Virus record (IMG/VR): IMGVR_UViG_2585427776_000001
DNA length: 8,016 nucleotides
Reading direction: 5' to 3' (one strand)
DNA from: a virus
Taxonomy: Duplodnaviria; Heunggongvirae; Uroviricota; Caudoviricetes
Shown piece by piece: positions 1 to 7,762 of the stretch (positions are counted from its first letter, which is position 1; every line of letters begins with the position of its first letter). The notes below the pieces were generated by a model, which was not told where the DNA came from, made no database searches, and saw only the letters and a program-made list of their open reading frames with translations. The position numbers and the translations under genes are program-made.

Positions 1-1255
1 AACGACCACCACGCGCCATCAATTGAACAACACGCGTGCCCAGGCGAACATCTTTCACATAGCGGGAATCAAAATTCCCCCAGTTGCTGGGTTGTATCTG
101 ACCGTTAACAGCAAATATTACTGAGTTATCTGTATTTCGCTGACTATAGAAATGCCAGCCAGAATCATCGCCAAGCTCTGCAACAGTTGGCCTTGACGAA
201 GCGCCCCATAAATTAAACCCTACGTTCTTCGTGGAGTTGTTGGAGCTGGATAGCGTGAATTTTTTACCATCCCCGGCCTGAATATTTTTAAAAGCAATAG
301 CCACTCCATTCTGAAAGCGGAATACACGCTGACTATTAGCATAAACATCCAGAATACCGTCTCCATTCTGTTTAAATCCGGTGTCATTATCACCAAGAAC
401 AATAGAGCTACCACCTAACGCATTCGTCGAACCAACTCCAAGACTGCCATTAATGACAGCATTAACCAGAATATTTAGTGCATCCCATTTCAGCGTCATC
501 AGGTCTTTTGTTGTGGTGCTTTGTTTGCTTCTCCATTTGAAATATTCATTGCCGTTGTCGCCTGTTTCAAACCACATGAATGAATCAGTGTCACCATCGG
601 CATCATTTTTAAATCCAATCTTCGCCCAGTCAGTATTTCGAATCCAGGCAAGGATTGAGTCGTTTTCAAAAGTAAGTCCACCGGATAAGGTATCGCCTGT
701 CTTTTGAACGGCGTTACCAGCCTTGTTTACCGTTTCCTGCAAACCGAGGTTTTGGATAAACAGCGGCTTATTGGGAATATCTGCTCCGTTCCGCTCTTTT
801 GCCAGACGGGCATTGGCATTATCCATCGCAATTTTCACCGCTTTTGCGGTGGCTGCCAGCGTTTCACTGGGGCTGTCAGTGGCACTGGTTAGCTGAACGA
901 GTCCTTTTTTGTTCAGGCTGGCATCATAGATATCCAGATTTTCACGTGCTGTACGCTGTGCTGATGCCCCGGCAGTTTTAATTTCGCTGAGGTTATTTTT
1001 TATCAGCAGCGCGTTCTTGTTCATGATGGCTTTAATGGACAGTGCAAGCTGGTTTAATTTTGTTTTATCCGGTTGAATACCGGCTTCTTCCAGCGTGTTT
1101 AATAACTCCGCCTGCACAATATTAAACCAGTCCATGCCGGGCCATGTGATAACATTATTCCCGTCACCTTCTGAAAACCAGCGAACGATAGCACTACGCT
1201 GGGCGGATACGGGCGGCATGACGGTTACGCCGCTGTCGTTATCAATATAAAACAT
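1..1255 (-). CDS. S: Tail fibre protein (Mu S / gp49-like), N-terminal ~417 codons; 3' end runs off the window start
   Basis: Manual minus-strand translation from ATG at 1253-1255 (MFYIDNDSGVTVMPPVSAQRSAIVRWFSEGDG...) is open with no stop down to position 2. Contains the tail-fibre repeat region (DIYDASLNKKGLVQLTSATDSPSETLAATAKAV) typical of Mu S / P1 S / P2 H-type fibres. Start overlaps the stop of the upstream gene (TAATG). Absent from the ORF track because it has no in-window stop. Confidence 0.85.
   Translation of the reverse strand, partial: MFYIDNDSGVTVMPPVSAQRSAIVRWFSEGDGNNVITWPGMDWFNIVQAELLNTLEEAGIQPDKTKLNQLALSIKAIMNKNALLIKNNLSEIKTAGASAQRTARENLDIYDASLNKKGLVQLTSATDSPSETLAATAKAVKIAMDNANARLAKERNGADIPNKPLFIQNLGLQETVNKAGNAVQKTGDTLSGGLTFENDSILAWIRNTDWAKIGFKNDADGDTDSFMWFETGDNGNEYFKWRSKQSTTTKDLMTLKWDALNILVNAVINGSLGVGSTNALGGSSIVLGDNDTGFKQNGDGILDVYANSQRVFRFQNGVAIAFKNIQAGDGKKFTLSSSNNSTKNVGFNLWGASSRPTVAELGDDSGWHFYSQRNTDNSVIFAVNGQIQPSNWGNFDSRYVKDVRLGTRVVQLMARGGR
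734..759. other. gix-like site-specific recombination site (Gin/Hin-family invertase crossover site) inside the tail-fibre gene
   Basis: 26-bp imperfect dyad TTCCTGCAAACCGAGGTTTTGGATAA with central GA core and AAACC/GGTTT inner arms. Differs at one position from the gixL sequence as I recall it (TTCCTGTAAACCGAGGTTTTGGATAA). Its position, about 170 codons into the fibre gene, is where the constant/variable boundary is expected. Confidence 0.65.
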
Positions 1256-1797
1256 TAGTTATCTCCGTCATGGTAAACAAATTTATAAATCTGATGTGCG
1301 GGTTTATATTTCTCCAGTAAACATTCCAGCGCACCCGATTCATAAACACGTAACGGCGTCAGAACATTATCCAGCACCGTTGCGTTGCGATAATTTTTAA
1401 TACCGTAAATATTGACCTGCGTAACCCACTGGCCTTCTGTGGAATCCGTCAGCCTGACGGTAAAACCGTACTGCGCAGCCAGCCATTCATAAAAGCGCCG
1501 ACTCAGATTGCCGGTCATACGCATTTTATTCGCGGCAGCCCGCTGGCGTTCGGACAGGGTGCCGTTTTCGCTTGTACAGTCCGGCAACCCCAGAAATGAT
1601 TCCCACTCCCCCAGATACCAGCGGGATGTGGAAGGGAAACGCTCCCGCAGCATTTGCCGCGCATCATCCGCCGCAGTGGCAATCACGTCGCTGATGGCCT
1701 GCGCCAGCGCAGATAATTTGCTGTCGGGGCTTTTATTCCAGGCAAGCCCTGACGGCAGTAATTGCAGAAAGGCCGTCTGATAGGGTGTTACAGCCAT
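1255..1797 (-). CDS. Baseplate wedge protein, Mu gp48 (R)-like / P2 gpI-like
   Basis: 180-aa ORF (MAVTPYQTAFLQLLPSGLAWNK...); position immediately upstream of the tail-fibre gene and downstream of the J-like gene matches Mu/P2 baseplate synteny; stop overlaps the tail-fibre start, and start overlaps the stop of the preceding gene. Confidence 0.8.
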   Translation of the reverse strand: MAVTPYQTAFLQLLPSGLAWNKSPDSKLSALAQAISDVIATAADDARQMLRERFPSTSRWYLGEWESFLGLPDCTSENGTLSERQRAAANKMRMTGNLSRRFYEWLAAQYGFTVRLTDSTEGQWVTQVNIYGIKNYRNATVLDNVLTPLRVYESGALECLLEKYKPAHQIYKFVYHDGDN

Positions 1798-2870
1798 TCA
1801 ATTGTCCCCGGTGTTAACAGTTCCGTATTCTCCGAACGCTGGATCTCTGTCGGGAAACGCACTTCAAAATCATCCAGACCGGTAACACCTGCCACCGCAC
1901 GGATAATACGGGAGGGGGCAAGTGCGCCGCCCGGCGTCACCTCATTAAAAAACATGGTATTAATGGCGTGAGTAATAGCCTGTTTCAGTTCGGCTGTCTT
2001 CGGTGATATATAAATCCGTGGATTTACCGGCTTTGCCTTTGGCGCAAATACCGTGACATATACACCATCAGGCTGTCCGACAATCAGACCAGTGATCGGG
2101 TCAGTATGACCGGCGATATAATCTGCCACACGTTCCACATCTGCCGGTTGTGGAAAAATATTGCTCCGGTTATCCATAACAAACGTCACCCCGACTGTGC
2201 CACCGCCTTTCCATGTCGGAAAACACCAGGCACGGGTAACGCCGCTGACTTCACGCGCCCAGCGAACATAATCAAACTGATTACCGCCGAACGGAGGATA
2301 CTGGACACGATATTCCAGCCGTGACAGCAGCTCCGCTGCACTCTCAATATCAGCCCCACCGGAAAACCCTTTTACAGTGATGGCATCGGAAACAACACAG
2401 GCAACCGGAGTGATCAACGTTAAAAGGGTATTCTCACCGGTATTTCCTGCTTCACCGGCAGCCAGTGCGGTAACGGTAATTTCCGTCGTTCCTGCACGGT
2501 CAATCACAATGGCATCAGCCAGGCTGTAAACCACACCATCAGCACGCTGCCAGCGTGTACCGGCAGGAATGGTGGTCGCTGCCGATGTGGTGACAGTCAG
2601 CGGGCCGCTGGCGGCTGTCGCCTGTTTGCGGCGCACGCCCCAGAACCGGCAGTGCTCCAGCAACTCATCTTCATCTGCTGTCGACGGGATAATCTGCCGT
2701 CCAACCCATGAAATATGCTCGTGACAACCGGCAGCAAGGCCCGCCTGAGCATAAGCAATGGCGCTCAGCGTTTTTTCACGGGCCTGAGGCCAGCTACCCG
2801 GCAGGCGCTGTTCAATATTCTGTTCTGTACGGGCAATCAGCGATGATAATGTCGGTGGTGAATAAGCCAT
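1788..2870 (-). CDS. Baseplate J-like protein, Mu gp47 (W)-like
   Basis: 360-aa ORF (MAYSPPTLSSLIARTEQNIEQRLPG...); size and position typical of the baseplate J family; start ATG 2868-2870 directly abuts the stop of the upstream gene (TAAATG). Confidence 0.85.
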   Translation of the reverse strand: MAYSPPTLSSLIARTEQNIEQRLPGSWPQAREKTLSAIAYAQAGLAAGCHEHISWVGRQIIPSTADEDELLEHCRFWGVRRKQATAASGPLTVTTSAATTIPAGTRWQRADGVVYSLADAIVIDRAGTTEITVTALAAGEAGNTGENTLLTLITPVACVVSDAITVKGFSGGADIESAAELLSRLEYRVQYPPFGGNQFDYVRWAREVSGVTRAWCFPTWKGGGTVGVTFVMDNRSNIFPQPADVERVADYIAGHTDPITGLIVGQPDGVYVTVFAPKAKPVNPRIYISPKTAELKQAITHAINTMFFNEVTPGGALAPSRIIRAVAGVTGLDDFEVRFPTEIQRSENTELLTPGTIEWL

Positions 2871-3308
2871 TTAAACCCCGTTAAATGCTGCTTTAAACTC
2901 ATAAGGAATAACGGAACCATCCGGTAATGTCAGTGCAATGTAGAGGTATAACCAGCCCTGATGTAACTGTTCCGCTCTGACGTTAATCGCACTTACCCGG
3001 CCCGCTGTTTTCAGCCATTCCAGCGCCTCTTCGGCATACCCTCTGGCGCGTTCCAGCGTATCCGGTGTGGCTTTTTCACGTGATAACAGCCACAACCGCG
3101 AACCGATGGGGCGGTCGCGGTAACTGTCCCCCCACCATCCACGGCGATCATCTGAACCATCCGGCAGCGTGTCAGAATCCAGCGCGCGCCGGTCGGTAAA
3201 CAGGGAGATTGTCACATCGGTTGTCAGGCTGTCGTCGGTCAGCATATCAATGCCATCCTGTGCAATATCGCCGCGCCCGTTCGTCCAGATAATGGCTAAA
3301 TCGGTCAT
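2871..3308 (-). CDS. Baseplate protein, Mu gp46 (V)-like / P2 gpW-like (phage GP46 family)
   Basis: 145-aa ORF (MTDLAIIWTNGRGDIAQDGIDMLTDD...); small acidic protein between the spike and J-like genes as in Mu/P2 baseplate operons; ATGA start/stop overlap with the upstream spike gene. Confidence 0.8.
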   Translation of the reverse strand: MTDLAIIWTNGRGDIAQDGIDMLTDDSLTTDVTISLFTDRRALDSDTLPDGSDDRRGWWGDSYRDRPIGSRLWLLSREKATPDTLERARGYAEEALEWLKTAGRVSAINVRAEQLHQGWLYLYIALTLPDGSVIPYEFKAAFNGV

Positions 3309-3898
3309 TGCATTGGCCCCGTGGTTCCGCCGCTGTCGCCACGGTGGATATGCTTATCCGTCGATTTGCCATTGATGATGGCATCCGGGGCAGTAATATT
3401 GCTGTCGAACTGGCTTTTACCTTTAACGCCCAGACCTTTCTGGATCTCAACGTCGCCGGTAAACGTGGTTCTGGGTGTGTCAACGGTCATACTTTCATCA
3501 GCGTAAACCTCGACCGTTTTACAGGTAATGATGCAGCGTCCGTCCTTTGTCAGCCTGATACGATGCCCCTCATGGTGGTAAATGCCTGCATCACCCGGTT
3601 CAAGATTTGTCGGGCGGTAGCGGCGGTCTTCCACCACAACAGCAATCCCCTGATCACGTTGTGCGCCTACACAGGCAATCAGCGCCTCTGCGCCCGGCAG
3701 GGGAACGCTGAAATGTCCGTAATTTTGCAGGCGCTCCACTTCATCGGATTCCTCATCATCCAGCAGACCGACCTGCAGGTTCTGAACTTTTCGCCCGTCG
3801 TTAATCACGTTAACAACGGCACGCGCAAGCATCAGGCGCACACGACGCATCAGCGGTGTCAGCAGGCGGTTCATGGCGGAATCATTTACTCTTTCCAC
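3305..3898 (-). CDS. Baseplate central spike / assembly protein V-like, Mu gp45 (Q)-like
   Basis: 197-aa ORF ([35 protein letters not shown]...), with a C-terminal segment ending KSTDKHIHRGDSGGTTGPMQ; size and synteny fit the gpV/gp45 spike family. Confidence 0.85.
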   Translation of the reverse strand: MERVNDSAMNRLLTPLMRRVRLMLARAVVNVINDGRKVQNLQVGLLDDEESDEVERLQNYGHFSVPLPGAEALIACVGAQRDQGIAVVVEDRRYRPTNLEPGDAGIYHHEGHRIRLTKDGRCIITCKTVEVYADESMTVDTPRTTFTGDVEIQKGLGVKGKSQFDSNITAPDAIINGKSTDKHIHRGDSGGTTGPMQ

Positions 3899-5025
3899 GG
3901 CGGCGTTTTCTCCGGGTGTCTGCGATAATAATCTTCAACCAGCGCATCAATACCGCCGTTACTGTCGCCGCCTTTCCTGTTTTTGCGGTCGCTTTCAACC
4001 GGCACCAGAAAGCCTTCGCGTGGTGCAAGGCTGACGCGGGTTTTCAGCCCGTCCTGGTCATTCAGTATCAGGGTGACTTTGCTGACCAGTAATTCTGTGG
4101 TTTTGATGGCATATTTCGAGGCATCAATAGTGACCAGCAGGTTCGGCATCCAGAGTTGCCCGTCCTTGCGTGTCCATCCGTCAATTTCTGCCTCAAAGGT
4201 GATGGATTTTGCCAGTCTGCGGCGTTGCTCACGCAGGGCGCGGGCCTGTGCATCCTTCGCCGTAATTTTGCTGTCGGCAATGATGATCATCGGTCTGTAA
4301 CGGGTCACATCACTGTCAGTGGCGGTCCCTTTCCGGGAGACGATACTTTTCGCATCAATATCATCACCCTCAGCACCATTTGCGCGGGCATACCCCTTGA
4401 CGGTGTATTCGCTGAACCGGTCGCGGAAGTCTTCCTCAAAATCCAGTGTTAGCAGATTTTCTCCGAGAACCAGCTCATCAGTGGCTGTGCTGGCAGCCCG
4501 GCTGAATACCAGCTCTCCGGCGGCATTGCTGGTCATCAGTACACCGCGTGCGCGGGAGGCACGCACCAGCGCCTCATAAACGGTTTCTGAATGGTCCAGC
4601 GTGAAGCCGGGAAAAACTGCCGAACTTTCCTTATCGGAAAGCTCCCAGCGAACGGTAACGCCATAAGGGGTGCACAGGTCACGCGCAATCTGCTCCAGTG
4701 TGCGGTTTTTCCATTGTCCGCCACTGTAAACGGCAGCACAGTCAATCAGGTCAGCCGTTTTGTCACGTCCGGCGATAGTGATTTTCATACTGTCAGCGGT
4801 CATCTGGCGTCGCCGTGAATCGATATAACCGGTGCAGACAATCTGCCCCTCGATTTCCAGCGTGAACTTCTTCCCCGGTGCCAGCCCGGATAAATCCGTG
4901 CCCGGTGGCACGTTCACCCCCAGCTCAAAATATCCGGCTACGGATTCAATCGAGCGGGTGACAGAGACTGACGTCCAGCCGGTAAAAAGCCTGCCATCCG
5001 TTCGCAGCGTGACGGTATTACTCAT
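3886..5025 (-). CDS. Baseplate hub protein, Mu gp44 (P)-like / P2 gpD-like (late control D family)
   Basis: 379-aa ORF ([37 protein letters not shown]...); position between the N-like and spike genes; overlaps both neighbours by a few codons. Confidence 0.85.
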
Positions 5026-6088
5026 TAATCACCTCAATACTGACACCACCGGGAACAAACAACGGGTTGCTGATACCGTTCCTGCGGGCCAGCCGTTGCC
5101 AGTTCCGGCTGTTTCCTGTGTAACGGTACAGAGCCACCATTGCAGGCATCGTCTCCGGCAGGCGGTGCGTTTCACTGCCCGCCAGTTGCAGCCCGCGTTT
5201 TTCCAGGTCGGCAACAACCAGCAGACGCAGTTGCGTAAGCTGAACGCTGTCTGTCGAAAAGCCCTGCTCAGATGCCGTCAGAATGACGGTATCCAGCGCT
5301 GCCCCCAGCATGGCGGCTGTTTTTCCGATATCGGACACACTTTCAAATACCGGGGGCGTGGCTGTACCACTGTCTGAAAAGGATACCTGTGAAAAGCCGC
5401 CGTCCGGGGTTATGGCAGTTAACTGTAACTGTCCCTGTGTGACGGTAGCGGATGTGCTGCTGGCCCCGCTGGCTGTGCCGGTTGTGGTGGACGGGGCATC
5501 CAGTACAGGTGCACGGGCGGCATTATCCATCCGGCGACTGAAATCCAGTGCCGCAGTCAGTGCCTGGCTTGCTGCCTCCGCCCGGTATGTCTGTGCTGCT
5601 GCCAGCATGACGTAGTTCAGTGTGGCAATATTTTTTTCTGCAACCGGACTGTTGTACGAGGTTGTGATTGTCCCCTGTCTGCCTGCGGTGGCGGCATGGC
5701 GACGTTCGAATCGCTGCGCCAGACGGTTCCATGTGGAAAATGCTGTCCGGGTATCGCATAACGATGAAACGCCGGACAGCGCCCCCATCAGCGAGGAGGC
5801 CAGCATGGCAGGCTGGTTAATCAGGCTGGTCACAGAGCCTTTCATCGCAGAAAGCGATCCCATCAGACCGCTGACAGTCTGCGTAACCCCCAGATTGTCC
5901 ACCGCATCACTGATATCATCGATGACACCGGTTACAGCTTCCATCACGGCGGTTGCCGCCGCAGTGCCATCTTTTACGGTCTGCCAGACAGAGGACAGCG
6001 TATCTCCCAGAGAACCGGTTACAGCAACGGCCTGTGCCGGTACGGCTGCACTGGTGTCTGTCTCTGCGTCCGGGGCAGTATCCTGCAA
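5018..6088 (-). pseudogene. DNA circularization protein N (Mu gp43)-like, apparently 5'-truncated remnant
   Basis: 356 codons in frame with the downstream baseplate genes (ends ...[21 protein letters not shown]). The frame stays open upstream to 6118 but has no ATG/GTG start with a Shine-Dalgarno (the track's start is a TTG), and the first ATG is about 49 codons in. The upstream end abuts the transposase remnant in another frame. Truncation is inferred from my recollection that Mu N is considerably longer; this needs alignment to confirm. Confidence 0.6.
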
Positions 6089-6095
6089 CGACGGA

Positions 6096-6218
6096 TATCT
6101 GTCGAAACACCCACTGTTCTAACCTTGCTTTACGAGAGATCGCGCTAGAGGATTTTGGAAGACCTATCAGCCCTTCTAATTTCTTTGCAGAAAACCAATC
6201 ATTACATTGTGGTTGCAT
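6096..6218 (-). pseudogene. A: Transposase A N-terminal fragment (about 40 codons of the operator/enhancer-binding winged-helix domain), fused out of frame to the N remnant
   Basis: ATG at 6216-6218, 2 nt after the ner stop. [41 protein letters not shown] is clearly paralogous to the repressor N-terminus in this same window ([35 protein letters not shown]), as expected for the Mu/D108 A and c pair. Similarity stops after about codon 41 and the reading frame then runs through the N remnant in a different frame (track ORF 5916..6224). Confidence 0.65.
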
Positions 6219-6220
6219 TT

Positions 6221-6439
6221 TCAATACCTCGAAGGCCAGATGTCTCGTGGCTCAACTCCCAATGCATCGGCAATGATTCTTTCCCCCCGAGGGTAAGGTT
6301 TATCCAAGGCATTTTTTACCGTAGAGATAGAGAGACCGTTCTCACGACCAAGAGCTGCTAGGCTTTTTCCTCTTTTGCGCAGATCAGCAACAATGTCGTA
6401 TCTACTTTTGTCTTCACATTTACTTTTCTTTATCGCCAT
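6221..6439 (-). CDS. ner: Ner-family DNA-binding transcriptional regulator (Mu Ner / Nlp-like)
   Basis: 72 aa from ATG 6437-6439 ([72 protein letters not shown]), with GAGGA 9 nt upstream. The C-terminal WPSRY and overall pattern match the Ner/Nlp family; divergent from the repressor gene as in Mu. The track ORF starts 3 codons earlier at a TTG. Confidence 0.85.
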
Positions 6440-6448
6440 AAAATGCAA

Positions 6449-6639
6449 TCCTCACAAGCTACGCCATCAGCTACGCCGCAAGGTAGCTGATAAGGTATGC
6501 AGCAATGCTAGTGTGAATACATTGTCAATGCAATAGTGTATTCAAATGTTTTGTTTGAAATTCATCTATCTCGATGATTTTAAAGTGAATATATTTTTCA
6601 TTTCTTTGAATACATCGTGTATTTAAAGCGAGGTTTGTG
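6449..6639. promoter_or_regulatory. Divergent early-promoter/operator region between ner and c (Pe/Pc with operator repeats)
   Basis: AT-rich 190-bp intergenic region with repeated TGAATAYA motifs: TGAATACA 6514-6521 paired with inverted TGTATTCA 6537-6544; TGAATACA 6607-6614 paired with inverted TGTATTTA 6618-6625; TGAATATA 6586-6593. A TTGACA hexamer on the minus strand (plus 6523-6528) lies between the first pair. Exact promoter elements and transcription start sites are not determined. Confidence 0.5.
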
Positions 6640-7155
6640 ATGACACAAGAATGGTTTTCAGCTAAAGAGCTACAAGGGGTTGCTGGTCTTCCGTCTTCAG
6701 CAAGTAGTATTAGCCGCAAAGCAACTAATGAGGGATGGAAAAAGAGACAGATCAAAGGAGTAAAGGGTGTTGCTTATGAATACCATATCAGCTCATTACC
6801 TGATGCCACTCAGGCAGAATTAGGAGGGGCGCAGTTATTAGATAACGATAAGTCAGCTTATAAGTTAGCTTCTGTGTTAATGGCTTTGGTTGCAGAGTTA
6901 GAACCAGAGGAAATCCAGAGGGCATTAAAGCTACTTAGTAAAGGTGGACTTAGTGCACTAATGCCAAGTATCTTTGATCAGACTCAAATCCAATCTCTGC
7001 ACGGCGTATCGCGTGAGTGCATACAACTCGCCCAAATGCTAGAAACTTTACCAGCAGAAGAGCGCAAAGAGATTTTGTCAGAGCATGGTATTCATGAACA
7101 GGAAAGTCTTGTAGCTCCTTCGCAAGAACCACAAGATGTAAAAAAAGCCGTATAA
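6640..7155 (+). CDS. c: Prophage repressor c (Mu Repc-family; immunity specificity appears non-Mu, possibly D108-type)
   Basis: 171 aa from ATG 6640 (GAGG 7 nt upstream; track ORF starts one codon earlier at GTG 6637). N-terminal winged-helix domain paralogous to the A remnant; C-terminus (...[29 protein letters not shown]) resembles the Mu repressor C-terminal tail as I recall it; transcribed toward the Mu left end as in Mu. Confidence 0.85.
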
Positions 7156-7321
7156 CAACCATGAACCAGCTAAAACATACTTCACCTCACATAATCACAC
7201 ATGTAACATACCTAAACGGCATGAGCTGATTTGTGATATGAGTCATTTGGTTACAGCCTGGTTGTTATCGGTTTTGAACGTTTTTTGAAGCTGTTATTGA
7301 AATGATTTGCAGTGTTTTTGT

Positions 7322-7493
7322 TTTTCGTATTTTCAATGAAACAAAAGCAATTTTTTACTATCTTTCGCGTTTCATTGATTAACGACTAAAATTTGCGCTA
7401 CAGGCTTGCAAGCCCCACCAAATCTAATCCCATCAGATCCCGAATAATCCAATGTCCTCCCGGTTTTTTTCGTACTTCAAGTGAATCAATACA
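7322..7493. repeat. Mu-type left end (attL) with three MuA-binding-like repeats (L3-like 7322-7340, L2-like 7362-7379, L1-like 7467-7485) and terminal ...CA at 7492-7493
   Basis: On the bottom strand the three copies align as TTCACTTGAAGTACGAAAA (L1), ATCAATGAAACGCGAAAG (L2) and TTCATTGAAAATACGAAAA (L3). Their spacing from the terminus (about 9-27, 115-132 and 154-172 bp) matches the L1/L2/L3 arrangement known for Mu. Confidence 0.8.
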
Positions 7494-7762
7494 CCGACAA
7501 TAAGCTTTATACCGGGATCACCACGGATGTCGAACGCCGCTATCAGCAGCACCAAAGCGGCAAAGGGGCGAAAGCACTGCGCGGGAAAGGAGAACTAACG
7601 CTGGTGTTTTCCGCGCCAGTGGGCGATCGTTCGCTGGCGTTACGGGCGGAATATCGCGTTAAGCAACTGACCAAACGGCAAAAAGAGCGTCTGGTAGCGG
7701 AAGGCGCAGGGTTTGCAGAGCTGTTAAGCAGTCTGCAAACCCCGGAGATTAAAAGCGATTGA
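7494..7762 (+). pseudogene. yhbQ: yhbQ (GIY-YIG nuclease-superfamily protein, UPF0213), 5'-truncated by the prophage insertion
   Basis: Host-derived reading frame ...[88 protein letters not shown] matches E. coli YhbQ as I recall it from about residue 12 onward. The first ~11 codons are replaced by Mu-end sequence (track ORF 7481..7762 starts at a GTG inside the Mu end). Confidence 0.75.

Follow-up and report, generated by a model that had tools for sequence, protein, structure and literature searches.

The c-ner control region of a defective Mu-like prophage as part of a probable third immunity cassette

Results

The window and its genes

The DNA analyzed here, called the window throughout, is a stretch of 8,016 nucleotides from IMG/VR record IMGVR_UViG_2585427776_000001. 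It comprises the left part of a Mu-like prophage, running from the prophage interior into the host chromosome, and contains the following genes and end.

1255-6088, minus strand: tail and baseplate genes, 98% identical to those of PhiR68_1 and D108
6096-6218, minus strand: A' remnant, the first 41 codons of the transposase gene (part of domain I-alpha), ending at the deletion junction 6096/6097
6221-6439, minus strand: ner, encoding a Ner/HTH_35 DNA-binding protein of 72 amino acids plus stop (PF13693, E = 2e-25, above the curated cut-off)
6640-7155, plus strand: c, encoding a repressor of 171 amino acids plus stop, with an N-terminal winged-helix Mu DNA-binding domain (PF02316, E = 4e-23)
7035-7493, no strand: 3' end of c and the prophage left end (attL), 95% identical to Mu positions 1-458

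Beside the left end, c and ner diverge and ner is followed by transposase gene A, which is the arrangement of the Mu family (Muvirus). Two other family traits were also found, a c winged-helix domain homologous to transposase domain I-alpha and a small DNA-binding protein of the Ner family. The order c, ner, A, B is that of the relatives too. A preliminary description of this DNA had called the ends and tail genes Mu-like, and the identities of attL to Mu and of the tail genes to D108 and PhiR68_1 confirm it. Mu position 1 corresponds to window position 7493, with host gene yhbQ beyond, and the flank from approximately 7492 on is 100% identical to E. coli K-12 yhbQ. This gene, which encodes a GIY-YIG nuclease (flank 7494-7762), has its 5' end truncated by the abutting prophage left end. 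At the opposite side of the window, positions 1-457 gave no match to PhiR68_1 or D108 and belong to a tail-fibre variable region, and the G-segment region of PhiR68_1 contains a second copy of positions 719-759, in inverted orientation.

In a blastn comparison, window position 6096 corresponded to position 1404 of PhiR68_1, in A codon 41, and window position 6097 to position 26547, in the middle of gene N, so that approximately 25.1 kb is missing at a single junction, where the two segments overlap by 2 nucleotides. The A' remnant is 100% identical to residues 1 to 41 of PhiR68_1 A, its match to PF02316 is weak, and its reading frame continues out of frame up to position 5916. Because A is cut at codon 41 by the 25-kb deletion, the element is defective and cannot transpose.

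The deletion junction was absent from all 5,426 complete E. coli genomes, and none of these genomes had a Mu-type end at the yhbQ site. The immunity module containing c and ner was present in 15 of the 5,426 genomes and in 4 IMG/VR contigs. Full-length prophages carrying it occupy a variety of chromosomal positions, near cyaY, bcs, yehP, and sinH. An active lineage of transposable phages would be expected to show such a spread. A scan of species-representative genomes with the c alignment returned one distant locus only, which was of no use for footprinting. The contig bearing it (JBHJJI010000016.1), labeled as a Leptolyngbyaceae cyanobacterium metagenome-assembled genome, encodes a Mu-type transposase N terminus that is 52% identical to c residues 1 to 62; it may have been binned incorrectly or else carry a distant transposable prophage.

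Relationship of the immunity genes to those of Mu and D108

The N terminus of c matched the PDB sequences of MuA domain I-alpha (1TNS) and of the Mu repressor DNA-binding domain (1G4D and 1QPM), and its C-terminal part is Mu-like, with VKKAV as the last residues. The proposal that c and A have the same DNA-binding domain was borne out by 59% identity over 37 amino acids (E = 7e-15) between c and the 41-amino-acid A' remnant. The protein N termini given in the preliminary description held up, with one reservation: for c, the more likely start is ATG 6640 and not GTG 6637; the ATG has a GAGG 6 nucleotides upstream and is the start annotated in relatives. The N termini quoted there for Mu c and MuA agreed with the Mu record. 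In one prophage of E. coli bR_120_Kylling (L006, 3541-4074), c ends in ...DVKKPYNNQESS and not in ...DVKKAV. This altered C-terminal tail is reminiscent of the Mu vir frameshift repressors, which become protease sensitive.

The amino acid identities of the window proteins to their counterparts were as follows.

c, full length: PhiR68_1 95%, D108 40%, Mu 49%
c, DNA-binding domain: PhiR68_1 98.6%, D108 53-56%, Mu 37%
c, C-terminal part: PhiR68_1 93%, D108 31%, Mu 57%
Ner: PhiR68_1 99%, D108 64%, Mu 46%
A' (41 residues): PhiR68_1 100%, D108 51%, Mu 32%

The view that c, ner, and A' are not those of canonical Mu is upheld by the identities of 49, 46, and 32% to the Mu proteins. Canonical Mu immunity was rejected on these values, on the 37% identity of the c DNA-binding domain, and on the lack of CTTTT-type sites; no CTTTT occurred in the 200 nucleotides upstream of c at the window-type loci (L012 to L015), versus 6 to 7 at Mu-type loci. 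The D108 module was rejected as well, with identities of 40% for c, 64% for Ner, and 51% for the A N terminus and without reiterated TGAAATCA-type sites. How far a member of the D108 type may diverge can be judged from SfMu, whose c and Ner are 89% and 98% identical to those of D108 (PMC4406740) and which was approximately 90% identical to D108 in the present comparison. Measured against the latter figure, the 40, 64, and 51% found for the window point to a third type rather than a D108 variant. The preliminary description had likened the combination of Mu-like ends with a heterologous immunity region to D108-type phages; the mosaic pattern is indeed the one known from D108, but the module itself is not that of D108.

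Of the 50,697 phage records searched, PhiR68_1 alone (PV340575.1, deposited in 2025) had this c-ner-A' segment, with 97.7% DNA identity. When the same records were searched by tblastn with the c DNA-binding domain, high identity was again confined to PhiR68_1 (98.6%), the next being Mu_3F6, SfMu, and D108 at 56 to 58%. With c, ner, and the A N terminus each at least 95% identical and the same five operator sites, the window carries a PhiR68_1-type cassette. A search for a published description of PhiR68_1 immunity found none, and the only paper with the term "PhiR68" concerns another phage, PhiR68.2.

The heterologous cassette measures approximately 0.98 kb. Homology to Mu (95%) resumes at window position 7035, at about c codon 132, and, at the other edge as seen in PhiR68_1, around A codon 54; beyond this point, A of the PhiR68_1 lineage shares 99% identity with A of both Mu and D108. 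The c gene is itself a mosaic. Its last 40 or so codons, together with attL, are 95% identical to Mu DNA, and its DNA-binding domain is nearer D108 (53%) than Mu (37%), the C-terminal part being nearer Mu (57%) than D108 (31%).

Reiterated sites in the control region

The intergenic region of 200 bp between ner and c contains the following elements.

6457-6491, no strand: putative Ner operator, with direct repeats AGCTACGCC at 6457-6465 and 6469-6477 and an inverted repeat described below
6505-6533, minus strand: candidate early promoter Pe, with -35 TTGCAT (6533-6528), a 17-nucleotide spacer, and -10 TAGCAT (6510-6505); a weak prediction
6514-6544, no strand: O2-like cluster, TGAATACA at 6514-6521 (plus) and TGAATACA at 6537-6544 (minus)
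6545-6585, no strand: AT-rich spacer between the clusters, where Mu has its IHF bend site; the most variable part among relatives
6586-6625, no strand: O1-like cluster, TGAATATA at 6586-6593 (plus), TGAATACA at 6607-6614 (plus), and TAAATACA at 6618-6625 (minus)

The motif TGAATAYA occurs exactly four times in the window, at 6514-6521 (plus), 6537-6544 (minus), 6586-6593 (plus), and 6607-6614 (plus). All four copies therefore lie within 6514-6614, as the preliminary description had stated for the c-ner intergenic region; in dinucleotide shuffles of the whole window the mean was 0.38 copies, and 0 of 200 shuffles reached four. Inverted pairs had been proposed. Of the exact copies, only those at 6514 and 6537, with a 15-nucleotide gap, form one. 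A second pair requires a fifth copy that deviates from the motif at one position, TAAATACA at 6618-6625 (minus), which together with 6607-6614 forms an 11-nucleotide inverted repeat with a 3-nucleotide gap, the palindrome CTTTGAATACA-N3-TGTATTTAAAG. Because the region is AT rich, the intergenic DNA was also shuffled by itself, to see how often any 8-mer would match the observed counts. This happened for three exact copies in 4 of 500 shuffles and for five copies with at most one mismatch in 9 to 18 of 500. By these local statistics taken by themselves, the repeat exceeds chance to a moderate degree. Whole genomes provided a stronger and independent test; in the 37-kb PhiR68_1 genome TGAATAYA occurs four times, each time between c and ner (887-986), and in the 37-kb D108 genome it does not occur.

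At the sequence level, then, two clusters of reiterated sites lie between c and ner. The sites of the O2-like inverted pair are 23 bp apart, start to start, and bracket the -35 element and spacer of the candidate Pe; those of the O1-like cluster follow each other at 21 and 11 bp. These spacings place the sites of each cluster roughly on one face of the helix. Among 10 relatives, 6 of 40 motif positions varied versus 27 of 81 in the rest of the operator region, a borderline and weak difference (Fisher p = 0.05).

Putative Ner operator, promoter, and spacer

The inverted repeat that adjoins ner consists of ATCAGCTAC (6466-6474) and GTAGCTGAT (6483-6491) separated by 8 nucleotides, with the core AGCTAC-N8-GTAGCT. 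It aligns column for column with the perfect repeat CCGTGAGCTAC-N8-GTAGCTCACGG of D108 and SfMu, which in D108 is reportedly the Ner site defined by footprinting. The ner-side part is the most conserved of the region, with 5 of 66 positions varying among the 10 relatives. The Ner operator is likely this separate, D108-like inverted repeat at 6466-6491. The suggestion that the TGAATAYA motifs are half-sites for the repressor or Ner is therefore modified here; they are best read as sites for the repressor and transposase, and Ner would use the separate repeat, which lies in the same region and had gone unnoticed.

A strict scan of 6380-6700 for sigma-70 promoters and terminators found nothing. 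In a lenient scan the candidate Pe had 7 of 12 consensus matches, the maximum in that scan being 8 of 12; it was chosen as the positional counterpart of the same-strand D108 sequence TTGATT-17-TACATT and of Mu Pe, which in Mu is overlapped by O2. With the strict scan empty and the lenient candidates weak, the promoter positions proposed here rest on positional analogy.

Between the clusters, where Mu has its IHF site, the IHF consensus WATCARNNNNTTR was not matched with at most one mismatch, nor was it anywhere else in 6449-6639; a degenerate IHF site or intrinsic bending may take its place. An exact IHF consensus, TATCAGCTCATTA, is located inside the c coding region at 6786-6798. This match is probably due to chance, since matches with at most one mismatch occur at the expected number.

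Site positions in D108 and covariation with the recognition helix

The control region, taken from the start of ner through its last motif site, is collinear with those of D108 and SfMu without internal gaps; the alignment has just two gaps, of one base ahead of the first site and of ten bases immediately before c begins. The five sites occupy the same columns, in the same orientations, as D108 sites: those at 6514 and 6537 align with TGGAATCA and TGATTTGA, and those at 6586, 6607, and 6618 with TGAATTTA, TGAAATCA, and GGATTTTA. At four of the five, the central bases have changed in concert, from AATC-type in D108 to ATAC-type here. No exact copy of TGAAATCA was found in the operator region of the window or of PhiR68_1, and only one with one mismatch; the PhiR68_1 genome has five TGAAATCA, 0 of them in its c-ner control region.

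We compared the reiterated short motif upstream of c with the recognition helix of the repressor at 38 IMG/VR loci encoding related repressors. The motif tracked the helix across these loci, as follows.

Helix SSISRKA, motif AATACA: window type
Helix ATNITRKA, motif AAATCA: D108 and others
Helix ATNITRRA, motif AATTCA: L038 type
Helix GVHYRA, motif CTTTT: Mu
Helix GVHKRA, motif ATAAACC: L031 and L034 types

The helices of c and A agree within each phage and differ between phages. The AGCTAC-N8-GTAGCT core, by comparison, is constant across several types that differ in their c motif. Covariation of the motif with the c and A helix, and constancy of the AGCTAC core, are as expected if c and A domain I-alpha read TGAATAYA and Ner reads AGCTAC. 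The repressor and transposase domain I-alpha, and not Ner, are thus the proteins most likely to bind the TGAATAYA sites.

One further locus (L016; IMGVR_UViG_2713897198_000001, 1240-1510) encodes a repressor with approximately 46% overall identity to the window c and a very similar helix, ANSISRKA, and its A helix, SSSAISRKA, is that of PhiR68_1-type A. Its sites, TGAATACT, TGAATACA, and TCAATACA, are interspersed with TCAATTCA repeats, and the locus may represent a related or intermediate specificity.

Discussion

A probable third immunity cassette

Positions 6449-6639 can, with good probability, be read as the region that controls early transcription of a Mu-family transposable prophage in both directions, serving as both operator and transposition enhancer and belonging to a third immunity cassette, the PhiR68_1 type. 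From the homologies, the positions of the sites, and the covariation of motif and helix, we infer the following scheme of binding, promoter position, cooperativity, and immunity specificity. Along the plus strand, the putative Ner operator with its AGCTAC repeats (6457-6491) would adjoin ner and be followed by the inverted TGAATACA pair (6514-6544) bracketing the candidate Pe, which would fire towards ner and A; the AT-rich spacer (6545-6585) and the three TGAATAYA-like sites (6586-6625) just upstream of c would complete the layout. The N-terminal winged-helix domain of c would bind the 8-bp sites and its C-terminal part would oligomerize, so that both clusters are occupied cooperatively, Pe is turned off, and lysogeny and immunity are maintained. 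In an intact phage, domain I-alpha of A would bind the same sites and use them as a transposition enhancer, and in lytic growth Ner would bind its own inverted repeat and thereby lower the activity of the two divergent promoters.

The sites are TGAATACA here, TGAAATCA in D108, and CTTTT-type in Mu, with helices that differ to match, and on these grounds the module should be heteroimmune to Mu and probably to D108. Together, c, Ner, and the repeated DNA sites most likely make up a third specificity type, distinct from those of Mu and D108. The distinct specificity claimed in the preliminary description is accordingly well supported with respect to Mu and plausible with respect to D108, from which the half-sites differ at only 2 of 8 positions; D108's own sites stray from their consensus at up to 2 positions, so that some cross-recognition may occur. 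As judged from these comparisons, heteroimmunity towards Mu appears close to certain, and heteroimmunity towards D108 appears probable. Of the window element itself, only the c-operator-ner part is intact, and it could provide immunity against PhiR68_1-type phages.

A more specific and more tentative suggestion, to which we give somewhat less than an even chance, concerns the D108-like branch as a whole. The central dinucleotide of TGAA-NN-CA, AT in D108, TA here, and TT in the L038 type, might be read by two to three helix residues (T/N/T in D108, S/S(A)/S here) and so largely set immunity specificity, with the repressor, transposase domain I-alpha, and all five sites changing in step. If this is true, the present module and D108 form a natural minimal specificity swap, and both a winged-helix recognition code and a three-way coevolution of repressor, transposase, and enhancer become directly testable.

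Other readings of the region

The module could instead belong functionally to the D108 immunity group, as a diverged D108 allele whose repressor and Ner cross-react with D108 operators. The gap-free internal alignment of the control region with that of D108 would fit such an allele, as would the common Ner repeat core AGCTAC-N8-GTAGCT, the shared TGAA..CA of the half-sites, of which TGAATATA and TGAATTTA are one base apart, and the I-RKA that the recognition helices have in common. We nonetheless regard it as unlikely. The DNA-binding domain is 53 to 56% identical to that of D108, versus approximately 90% for SfMu (PMC4406740), the central dinucleotide has changed in concert at four of five sites, and over 38 loci the type of motif is predicted by the type of helix. 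Moreover, TGAATAYA is absent from the D108 genome, and all five TGAAATCA of PhiR68_1 lie outside its c-ner control region.

The two remaining readings concern the repeats themselves. That they are Ner sites, or sites shared by Ner and the repressor, is suggested by their location between divergent genes, where Ner acts, but it is rendered very improbable by the separate repeat at 6466-6491, which adjoins ner, is nearly invariant among relatives, and aligns with the perfect repeat said to be the D108 Ner site, and by the fact that the TGAATAYA-type motif covaries with the c and A helix when the AGCTAC core does not change with the c motif. A slimmer chance still attaches to the repeats being a by-product of AT-rich promoter DNA, -10-like or UP-element-like, and not specific protein sites. 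The region does have a G+C content of only 29 to 35%, its one-mismatch count was reached in 2 to 4% of local shuffles, and TGAATATA resembles a -10 element. Promoter composition would not, however, readily account for a motif that the 37-kb PhiR68_1 genome has nowhere outside its operator, that coincides in positions and orientations with a different motif in D108, that covaries with the helix, and whose spacings of 23, 21, and 11 bp are each near a whole number of helical turns. We therefore retain the reading of 6449-6639 as the probable operator and enhancer of a PhiR68_1-type cassette.

Significance

Mu-like phages that are otherwise nearly identical are already known to have exchanged their immunity cassettes, and the general picture of modular exchange in temperate phages is unchanged by the present case. 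The sequence of the module was also already public, and no characterization of it was found. For the immunity of transposable phages of E. coli, Mu and D108 have long been the two standards, and the view that a single operator/enhancer is contested by repressor and transposase is founded on them. A third type, collinear with D108 and with a slightly different half-site, would provide a natural comparison for the reading of DNA by winged-helix domains, and its near-minimal specificity difference from D108 at collinear sites is what we consider its most useful aspect. It would also offer an additional orthogonal repressor/enhancer pair for Mu-based genetic tools, and the remnant may explain resistance of its strain to PhiR68_1-type phages.

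Comparison with known systems

Like Mu, the window has divergent c and ner-A-B units beside attL and two clusters of reiterated sites (PMC3145075 and PMC3820752). The Mu enhancer overlaps operators O1 to O3; its MuA sites, and the repressor sites with them, fall into two clusters on either side of an IHF site (PMC3145075). The Mu sites, however, are CTTTT-type, O1 of Mu extends into a longer c gene, and a perfect IHF consensus lies between the Mu clusters where none was found in the window. D108 and SfMu are closer in layout, sharing with the window the gene order, a collinear control region, the positions and orientations of the five sites, and the Ner repeat core AGCTAC-N8-GTAGCT. In D108, too, the repressor and the transposase N terminus are homologous, according to the passage of PMC3820752 that cites Mizuuchi et al. 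(1986). It differs from the window in its half-site, TGAAATCA versus TGAATACA, and in its recognition helix, ATNITRKA versus S(S/A)ISRKA in the window type. The nearest system is PhiR68_1, a complete 37-kb phage with an intact A, from which the window element differs in having lost the approximately 25.1 kb between A codon 41 and the middle of N, in a few operator substitutions, and at 7 positions in the c C-terminal part. Over window positions 6096-7493 the two are 97.7% identical in DNA sequence, and they have all five sites in common.
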